Part shown: piece by piece, positions 1 to 329 of the stretch | How positions within the stretch are numbered: position 1 is the first letter of the stretch | Layout of the letters: each line of letters starts with the position of its first letter | NCBI RefSeq assembly: GCF_003334385.1 | Contig: NZ_QOWN01000201.1 | DNA: 329 nt | DNA from: Escherichia coli | GTDB taxonomy: Bacteria; Pseudomonadota; Gammaproteobacteria; Enterobacterales; Enterobacteriaceae | Reading direction: 5' to 3' (one strand) | Notes under the pieces: model-generated | Databases searched by the model: none | Told to the model about the DNA's origin: nothing | The model's input: only the letters and a program-made list of their open reading frames with translations | Translations under genes and position numbers: made by a program

Positions 1-159
1 TCTGAAGGTTGTTTTGAAATTGGTGTCACTATCAGTAACCCTGTATTTACTGAAGATGCCATTAACAAGAGAAAACACGAACGGGAGTTATTAAATAAAA
101 TATGCATTCTTTCAATGCTGGCCCGTTTACGTCCGATACAAAAAGGATGTGCACAATGA
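1..159 (+). CDS. 3' portion of a small ORF (52 sense codons plus TGA stop; 5' end outside window); hypothetical protein, possibly a Kil-like prophage early-region peptide (tentative)
   Basis: Frame 1 is open from position 1 to the TGA at 157-159, while frame 3 carries stops (TGA 3, 15, 51; TAA 36, 63, 96) over the same stretch. Conceptual translation: SEGCFEIGVTISNPVFTEDAINKRKHERELLNKICILSMLARLRPIQKGCAQ*. The stop overlaps the downstream start (ATGA), which is typical of real coupled genes. The C-terminus is basic and amphipathic. The Kil-like call rests only on vague recollection of short basic helical Kil peptides and of small genes of this kind sitting beside DUF1482 genes in lambdoid prophages; no alignment was run. 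Confidence 0.55.
   Translation, partial: SEGCFEIGVTISNPVFTEDAINKRKHERELLNKICILSMLARLRPIQKGCAQ
143..147 (+). promoter_or_regulatory. Shine-Dalgarno (AAGGA) for the downstream ORF
   Basis: AAGGA at 143-147 sits 8 nt upstream of the ATG at 156, which is canonical spacing. It lies inside the last codons of the upstream ORF, as expected for coupled genes. Confidence 0.6.
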
Positions 160-329
160 ATACAGCATTTGCACTTGTTCTGACAGTTTTTCTTGTTTCC
201 GGAGAGCCAGTTGATATTGCAGTCAGTGTTCACAGGACAATGCAGGAGTGTGTGACTGCAGCAACCGAACAGAAAATTCCCGGTAACTGTTACCCGGTCG
301 ATAAAGTTATTCACCAGGATAATAACGAA
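156..329 (+). CDS. 5' portion of a DUF1482-family (YebW-like) small protein; continues beyond the 3' end of the window
   Basis: ATG at 156-158 is preceded by AGGA (144-147) with an 8-nt spacer, and frame 3 is open from 99 to 329 with no stop. Translation (58 codons): MNTAFALVLTVFLVSGEPVDIAVSVHRTMQECVTAATEQKIPGNCYPVDKVIHQDNNE. From memory, E. coli YebW (DUF1482) shares the pattern FALVL.V...G...DI.V.V..T...C.......I..G.C.P....I, including both cysteines (QEC and GNCYP here). The family call is recalled, not searched. Confidence 0.8.
   Translation, partial: MNTAFALVLTVFLVSGEPVDIAVSVHRTMQECVTAATEQKIPGNCYPVDKVIHQDNNE
218..260 (+). repeat. Inverted repeat TGCAGTCA (218-225) / TGACTGCA (253-260) with 27-nt spacer; potential mRNA stem-loop
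   Basis: Read directly: the two 8-mers are exact reverse complements. TGCAG occurs three times (218-222, 241-245, 257-261). Lies wholly within the downstream ORF; the large loop makes a stable hairpin uncertain. Confidence 0.35.
282..294. repeat. Perfect 13-bp palindrome GGTAAC-T-GTTACC (imperfectly extended to 279-297)
   Basis: Read directly: 282-287 GGTAAC, 288 T, 289-294 GTTACC are exact reverse complements. The flanks CCC/CGG extend the symmetry with one mismatch per side. It overlaps codons G-N-C-Y-P of the downstream ORF. The symmetry is certain; any function is unknown. Confidence 0.5.

Follow-up and report, generated by a model that had tools for sequence, protein, structure and literature searches.

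Bases 1–159 of the window, the 329-nucleotide stretch of Escherichia coli DNA analysed here, are almost certainly the 3′ five-sixths of dicB, the division-inhibitor gene of Qin/Kim-type E. coli lambdoid prophages, and none of the data contradict this identification. The feature is a known gene and as such an ordinary finding. It holds little discovery value: work on dicB goes back to the 1980s, and the allele found here is frequent both in E. coli and among its lambdoid phages. The features of the window are as follows.

1–159, plus strand: 3′ part of dicB, codons 11–62 of 62 followed by the TGA stop at 157–159; identical to the tail of an annotated dicB CDS.
156–159, plus strand: ATGA overlap, in which the ydfD start (156–158) overlaps the dicB stop (157–159), as read from the sequence.
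156–329, plus strand: 5′ part of ydfD (DUF1482; ‘lysis protein YdfD’ in K-12), codons 1–58 of 63, from the RefSeq annotation.
62–154, minus strand: ORF of 30 aa with a GTG start, lying entirely within dicB.

Frame 1 of the plus strand is open from base 1 to the TGA at 157–159 and is translated as SEGCFEIGVTISNPVFTEDAINKRKHERELLNKICILSMLARLRPIQKGCAQ before the stop. These 159 nucleotides are 100% identical to the last 159 nt of the VR50 dicB CDS (L001:4971-5159), where the ORF starts with an ATG located 30 nt upstream of the window, is preceded by a GAGGA Shine-Dalgarno sequence and encodes a product of 62 aa. A first-pass annotation, made from the letters of the window alone, had described the stretch as the end of a partial ORF, and the start found upstream at the identical locus bears this out; the tail sequence it gave also agrees exactly with the translation. 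As the first 10 codons of dicB are outside the window, their sequence was taken from the 100% identical loci.

The full-length product gives an end-to-end match to the Pfam DicB family (PF05358; protein residues 1–62 against model positions 1–62, E 4.7e-38, 129.1 bits). For NCBIfam NF049927, ‘cell division inhibition protein DicB’, which has a curated cut-off of 100, it reaches 130.6 bits, and it matches PHROG 1251 with an E-value of 1.2e-40. The protein has the length of about 62 aa and the conserved residues 1–14 expected of the family, with position 2 being E and not K. On this sequence evidence the frame belongs to a genuine gene rather than being open by chance, since the curated DicB models match it and pN stays lower than pS whenever alleles are compared (see below). 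The window contains neither the dicB promoter nor the first 10 codons, and an upstream lesion in the source genome is in principle conceivable.

The first-pass annotation had suggested a possible Kil-like peptide, and had named a confident profile hit to some other, unrelated family as grounds for rejecting it. The search returned DicB, and the Kil reading is refuted. According to that reading the product would bind FtsZ directly and block its assembly without MinC, in the manner of lambda Kil. The two proteins are of similar size and are found at a similar place in the early operon of lambdoid prophages; both cause filamentation and both involve ZipA (PMC3961180). However, BLASTP of DicB against lambda Kil and against Rac KilR yields no alignment even at E <= 100, in the Pfam scan DicB comes up and a Kil family does not, even with E <= 10 allowed, and DicB is dependent on MinC whereas Kil is MinC-independent (PMC3961180). 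Kil membership is consequently rejected at the sequence level, and a direct FtsZ-binding peptide is extremely improbable. What stands of the earlier suggestion is the class, a small division inhibitor encoded among the early genes of an enterobacterial lambdoid prophage; the family is wrong, and so is the mechanism of direct FtsZ inhibition, as the literature has DicB acting through MinC and ZipA (PMC3961180). Reasoning from composition alone, with a small basic peptide in AT-rich DNA, thus arrived at the correct biological class and missed both the family and the mechanism.

Downstream, the frame of ydfD is still open at the right edge of the window. The YdfD protein matches PHROG 1092 over its full length (E 2e-37), and the K-12 protein is reported to be a lysis protein inhibiting IspG of the MEP pathway (PMC8835842). 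The same 4-base dicB/ydfD overlap is seen in the annotated CDS coordinates of both VR50 and K-12, and an ATGA layout of this kind, typical of coupled operon genes, suggests that dicB and ydfD may be translationally coupled. The YdfD of the window allele has an identical protein accession, WP_001090200.1, in two strains. The minus-strand ORF at 62–154 was treated as a chance frame, being absent from the features under the match in all records listed.

The window itself carries only dicB and ydfD, and the wider context is therefore that of the VR50 locus. Here, YdaS/YdaT-like genes on the opposite strand are followed by an HTH repressor, ydfA, ydfB, ydfC, two small hypothetical ORFs, dicB and ydfD, and beyond ydfD by a 2.5-kb exonuclease gene, an excisionase, an integrase and then the host gene ompW. 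The K-12 reference layout is dicC/dicA, ydfA, ydfB, ydfC, dicF, dicB and ydfD. A full-length DicF sRNA is found in VR50 at L001:4736-4787 (Rfam RF00039, 77 bits against a gathering score of 48), and its end lies 184 nt before the dicB start, so that DicF is upstream of dicB as in K-12 Qin. The VR50 context is thus the dicBF operon as in K-12, located in a lambdoid prophage. Within the window, an Rfam scan at E <= 1 gives no match, and a promoter and terminator scan detects no promoter-like or terminator-like site, which fits a position internal to an operon. The GC content is 40.4% for the whole window, 37.1% for bases 1–159 and 47.8% for the surrounding 10 kb of prophage and flank, in agreement with the figure of roughly 40% given in the first-pass annotation.

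Two features of the interval upstream of dicB vary between loci. The two hypothetical ORFs of VR50 are located between ydfC and DicF at L001:3760-4161 (plus strand) and 4121-4399 (minus strand). ORFs similar to this pair are found in the PPompW phages and in strain 143, and the corresponding K-12 Qin interval has no annotated gene. Separately, when the DicF region of JNEC-KY177 (L008:~1280-1320) is aligned with the other three loci, it shows a gap of 17 nt and several mismatches in the stem-loop. From the sequence, DicF may be altered or lost in JNEC-KY177 while a divergent dicB allele is kept.

Aligning the window allele with K-12 DicB (b1575, NC_000913.3) gives 56 identical residues out of 62 (90%). 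The six differences are K2E, Q36H, V47L, L55P, M56I and P57Q. Of these Q36H and V47L are conservative, and L55P, M56I and P57Q fall within the last 8 residues. When seven DicB alleles are aligned, residues 1–31 are nearly invariant, with residue 1 and residues 3–15 identical in all seven, and the second half is variable. Nei-Gojobori counts against the window allele give pN and pS values of 0.041 and 0.074 for K-12, 0.023 and 0.093 for phage mEp460, and 0.261 and 0.471 for the divergent PPompW type. As pN is lower than pS in all comparisons, dicB is under purifying selection. This constraint is weaker in codons 32–62 (pN 0.435) than in codons 1–31 (pN 0.085).

These values bear on whether the gene is still active. 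The window could hold an inert remnant, a decaying allele in a cryptic prophage from which active protein is no longer made, given that K-12 Qin is defective, with ydfE and intQ pseudogenised, and that six substitutions including proline 55 separate this allele from the tested protein. However, the full 62-codon frame is intact with its GAGGA Shine-Dalgarno upstream, pN is below pS, and the functionally critical N-terminus is conserved. Furthermore, alleles with the same residues are carried by phages such as mEp460, and the exonuclease, xis and int of the VR50 prophage look intact, in contrast to Qin. Decay is therefore very unlikely.

The division of the protein into a constrained and a variable half agrees with earlier mutational work on DicB. 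The N-terminus is essential, and loss of even the first residue after the methionine weakens DicB, although the K2A, K2G and K2R variants keep activity (PMC4967827). The E2 of the window allele is a charge reversal of K2, and K2E is absent from the substitutions tested in that study. At the other end of the protein, Yang et al. found that DicB remains lethal after deletion of the C-terminal 8 residues (PMC4967827). The N-terminal ~14 residues of DicB are critical, and the basic tail is tolerant and the least conserved part. The tail was also the cue behind the Kil-like call, which was thus drawn from a part of DicB that varies and can be dispensed with.

The tail had been described as basic, amphipathic and helical. 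It is indeed basic, with 8 K/R against 4 D/E in the last 36 residues, whereas the tail of the PPompW and KY177 alleles (...NDNSILSRIALLELGIIGEQQ) has no net charge. Amphipathicity is unsupported, as the best 18-residue helical hydrophobic moment (0.354, in residues 28–54) is reached or exceeded in 3052 of 5000 shuffles and is not significant. The helical part of the description fares better. An AlphaFold2 model built from the seven-allele alignment contains one helix, at residues 24–53, and a helix over this region is plausible, with the reservation that the model is of low confidence (mean pLDDT 55, pTM 0.24). The proline at position 55 may cut the C-terminal helix short relative to K-12. A sequence search of the PDB with DicB finds no meaningful relative with a solved structure, the sole match being a ribosomal protein at E 0.11.

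A further feature of the locus is a block of ~130 nt (L001:4890-5017, reaching bases 1–17 of the window) that is almost invariant at the DNA level. It begins ~80 nt before the dicB start codon and extends through codon 15, and is invariant even between alleles that differ upstream, from DicF to the block, and that diverge sharply downstream (pS 0.71 in codons 32–62). The block could represent homology for mosaic exchange or recombination, or a translation or processing signal. When folded as RNA, the dicB leader and first codons are no more stable than shuffled sequences (z -0.67, not significant).

The variable C-terminal half could in turn act as a specificity module, setting the second partner of the DicB-MinC complex, whether ZipA, ManYZ or another inner-membrane phage receptor. 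The idea is rather a long shot; if it holds, different dicB alleles would exclude different phages. The residual value of the locus is found here, in the split of dicB into an invariant N-terminal and a variable C-terminal half and in a possible allele-specific choice of partner or specificity of phage exclusion.

The sequence is widespread. By megablast, 4001 of the 5426 complete E. coli genomes contain the window; identity is 99% or more in 194 records, and 100% in many, and in all megablast records listed the annotation reads DicB followed by ‘DUF1482 family protein / ydfD’. Eight records of lambdoid Escherichia phages also carry the window sequence, at 93.5–98% identity; with genomes and phages taken together, almost every record listed is annotated dicB + ydfD. 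The residues E2, H36, L47 and P55-I56-Q57 are also present in phage-record alleles, for example that of mEp460. Sequence resembling dicB occurs at up to 7 places in a single E. coli genome and at 16 places on plasmids. Some strains would appear, judging from these matches, to have several dicBF operons on different prophages, consistent with a report of more than one DicF copy in O157:H7 (PMC6832061). In the record of phage mEp460_ev081 (L002:3875-4159) DicB is annotated as a protein of 94 aa starting 96 nt upstream of the conserved ATG. The 62-aa form is found in all other records, and the family models have 62 positions; the longer form is probably the result of a miscalled start codon.

The mechanism proposed for the window allele rests on the literature for the K-12 protein and is carried over on the basis of the 90% identity. 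In K-12 dicBF is transcribed from dicBp under repression by DicA. Repression can be lifted by Rem, the antirepressor of Qin, or under some stresses, and in a subpopulation of cells it can be lost spontaneously; RNase III and RNase E release DicF from the polycistronic RNA (PMC10448788). Expression of DicB prevents formation of the FtsZ ring and leads to filaments (PMC4967827, PMC6832061, PMC3961180). The DicB-MinC complex is not under the control of MinE and is targeted to septal rings by ZipA, with the destruction of midcell Z rings (PMC4967827, PMC3961180, PMC6832061). Through MinC, DicB also inhibits ManYZ, which blocks both mannose uptake and the entry of lambda-like phage DNA and gives ~100-fold protection (PMC6832061). 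By extension, the operon of the window would be kept off by the DicA repressor, and once expressed the 62-residue DicB would recruit host MinC to stop cell division. The DicB-MinC complex would then go to the septal ring via ZipA and dismantle the midcell FtsZ rings, resulting in filamentation. By the same interaction with MinC, DicB would inhibit ManYZ and so block DNA entry by those lambda-like phages that use it.

Of these two activities, the second may be the one for which the gene is retained. DicB could be kept mainly for superinfection exclusion via MinC and ManYZ, with division inhibition being a side effect of overexpression. Transient expression of dicBF gives ~100-fold resistance to lambda, an effect that requires DicB and disappears in MinC mutants unable to bind it (PMC6832061). 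The gene also sits in the immunity/early region and is present in about three-quarters of complete E. coli genomes, often in multiple copies at up to 7 places per genome. However, the operon is repressed under normal circumstances, and the conditions that induce it in nature are ill-defined (PMC10448788, PMC6832061), and intact plaque-forming phages also carry dicB, which fits a role in the lytic cycle too. Furthermore, the PADLOC defence models have no match for DicB, nor for Kil. A main role in exclusion is thus a reasonable minority view, and the reading adopted here is of a DicA-repressed division inhibitor that would act through MinC.

Comparison with known systems places the window allele closest to DicB (b1575) of the K-12 Qin (Kim) cryptic prophage, with which it shares the family, the length of 62 aa and 90% sequence identity. 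The operon order dicF, dicB, ydfD and the 4-base ydfD overlap are common to Qin and to loci of the window type. Unlike the decayed Qin, however, loci 100% identical to the window have an intact-looking prophage next to ompW and two extra ORFs between ydfC and dicF.

Lambda Kil (47 aa, NC_001416) is encoded in the pL operon between cIII and gam. Like DicB it is small, belongs to a lambdoid early operon, prevents Z rings from forming and causes filamentation, with ZipA involved (PMC3961180). The two differ in that DicB requires MinC, whereas Kil acts directly on FtsZ and independently of MinC (PMC3961180). The position also differs, as the neighbours of the present gene are DicF upstream and ydfD and the exonuclease downstream, and not cIII and gam. 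KilR of the Rac prophage (73 aa, b1352) is similarly a small division inhibitor from a cryptic lambdoid prophage. It is encoded upstream of a recE-type exonuclease, and Rac has a DUF1391 gene, ydaF, like ydfA. MinC dependence is not established for KilR, in contrast to DicB.

Finally, the host protein MinD, the normal activator of MinC, provides a functional rather than a structural parallel. DicB replaces MinD as the partner that activates and localizes MinC (PMC3961180, PMC4967827), but it is unrelated to the MinD ATPase, and the DicB-MinC complex is free of regulation by MinE and is targeted to the ring via ZipA.
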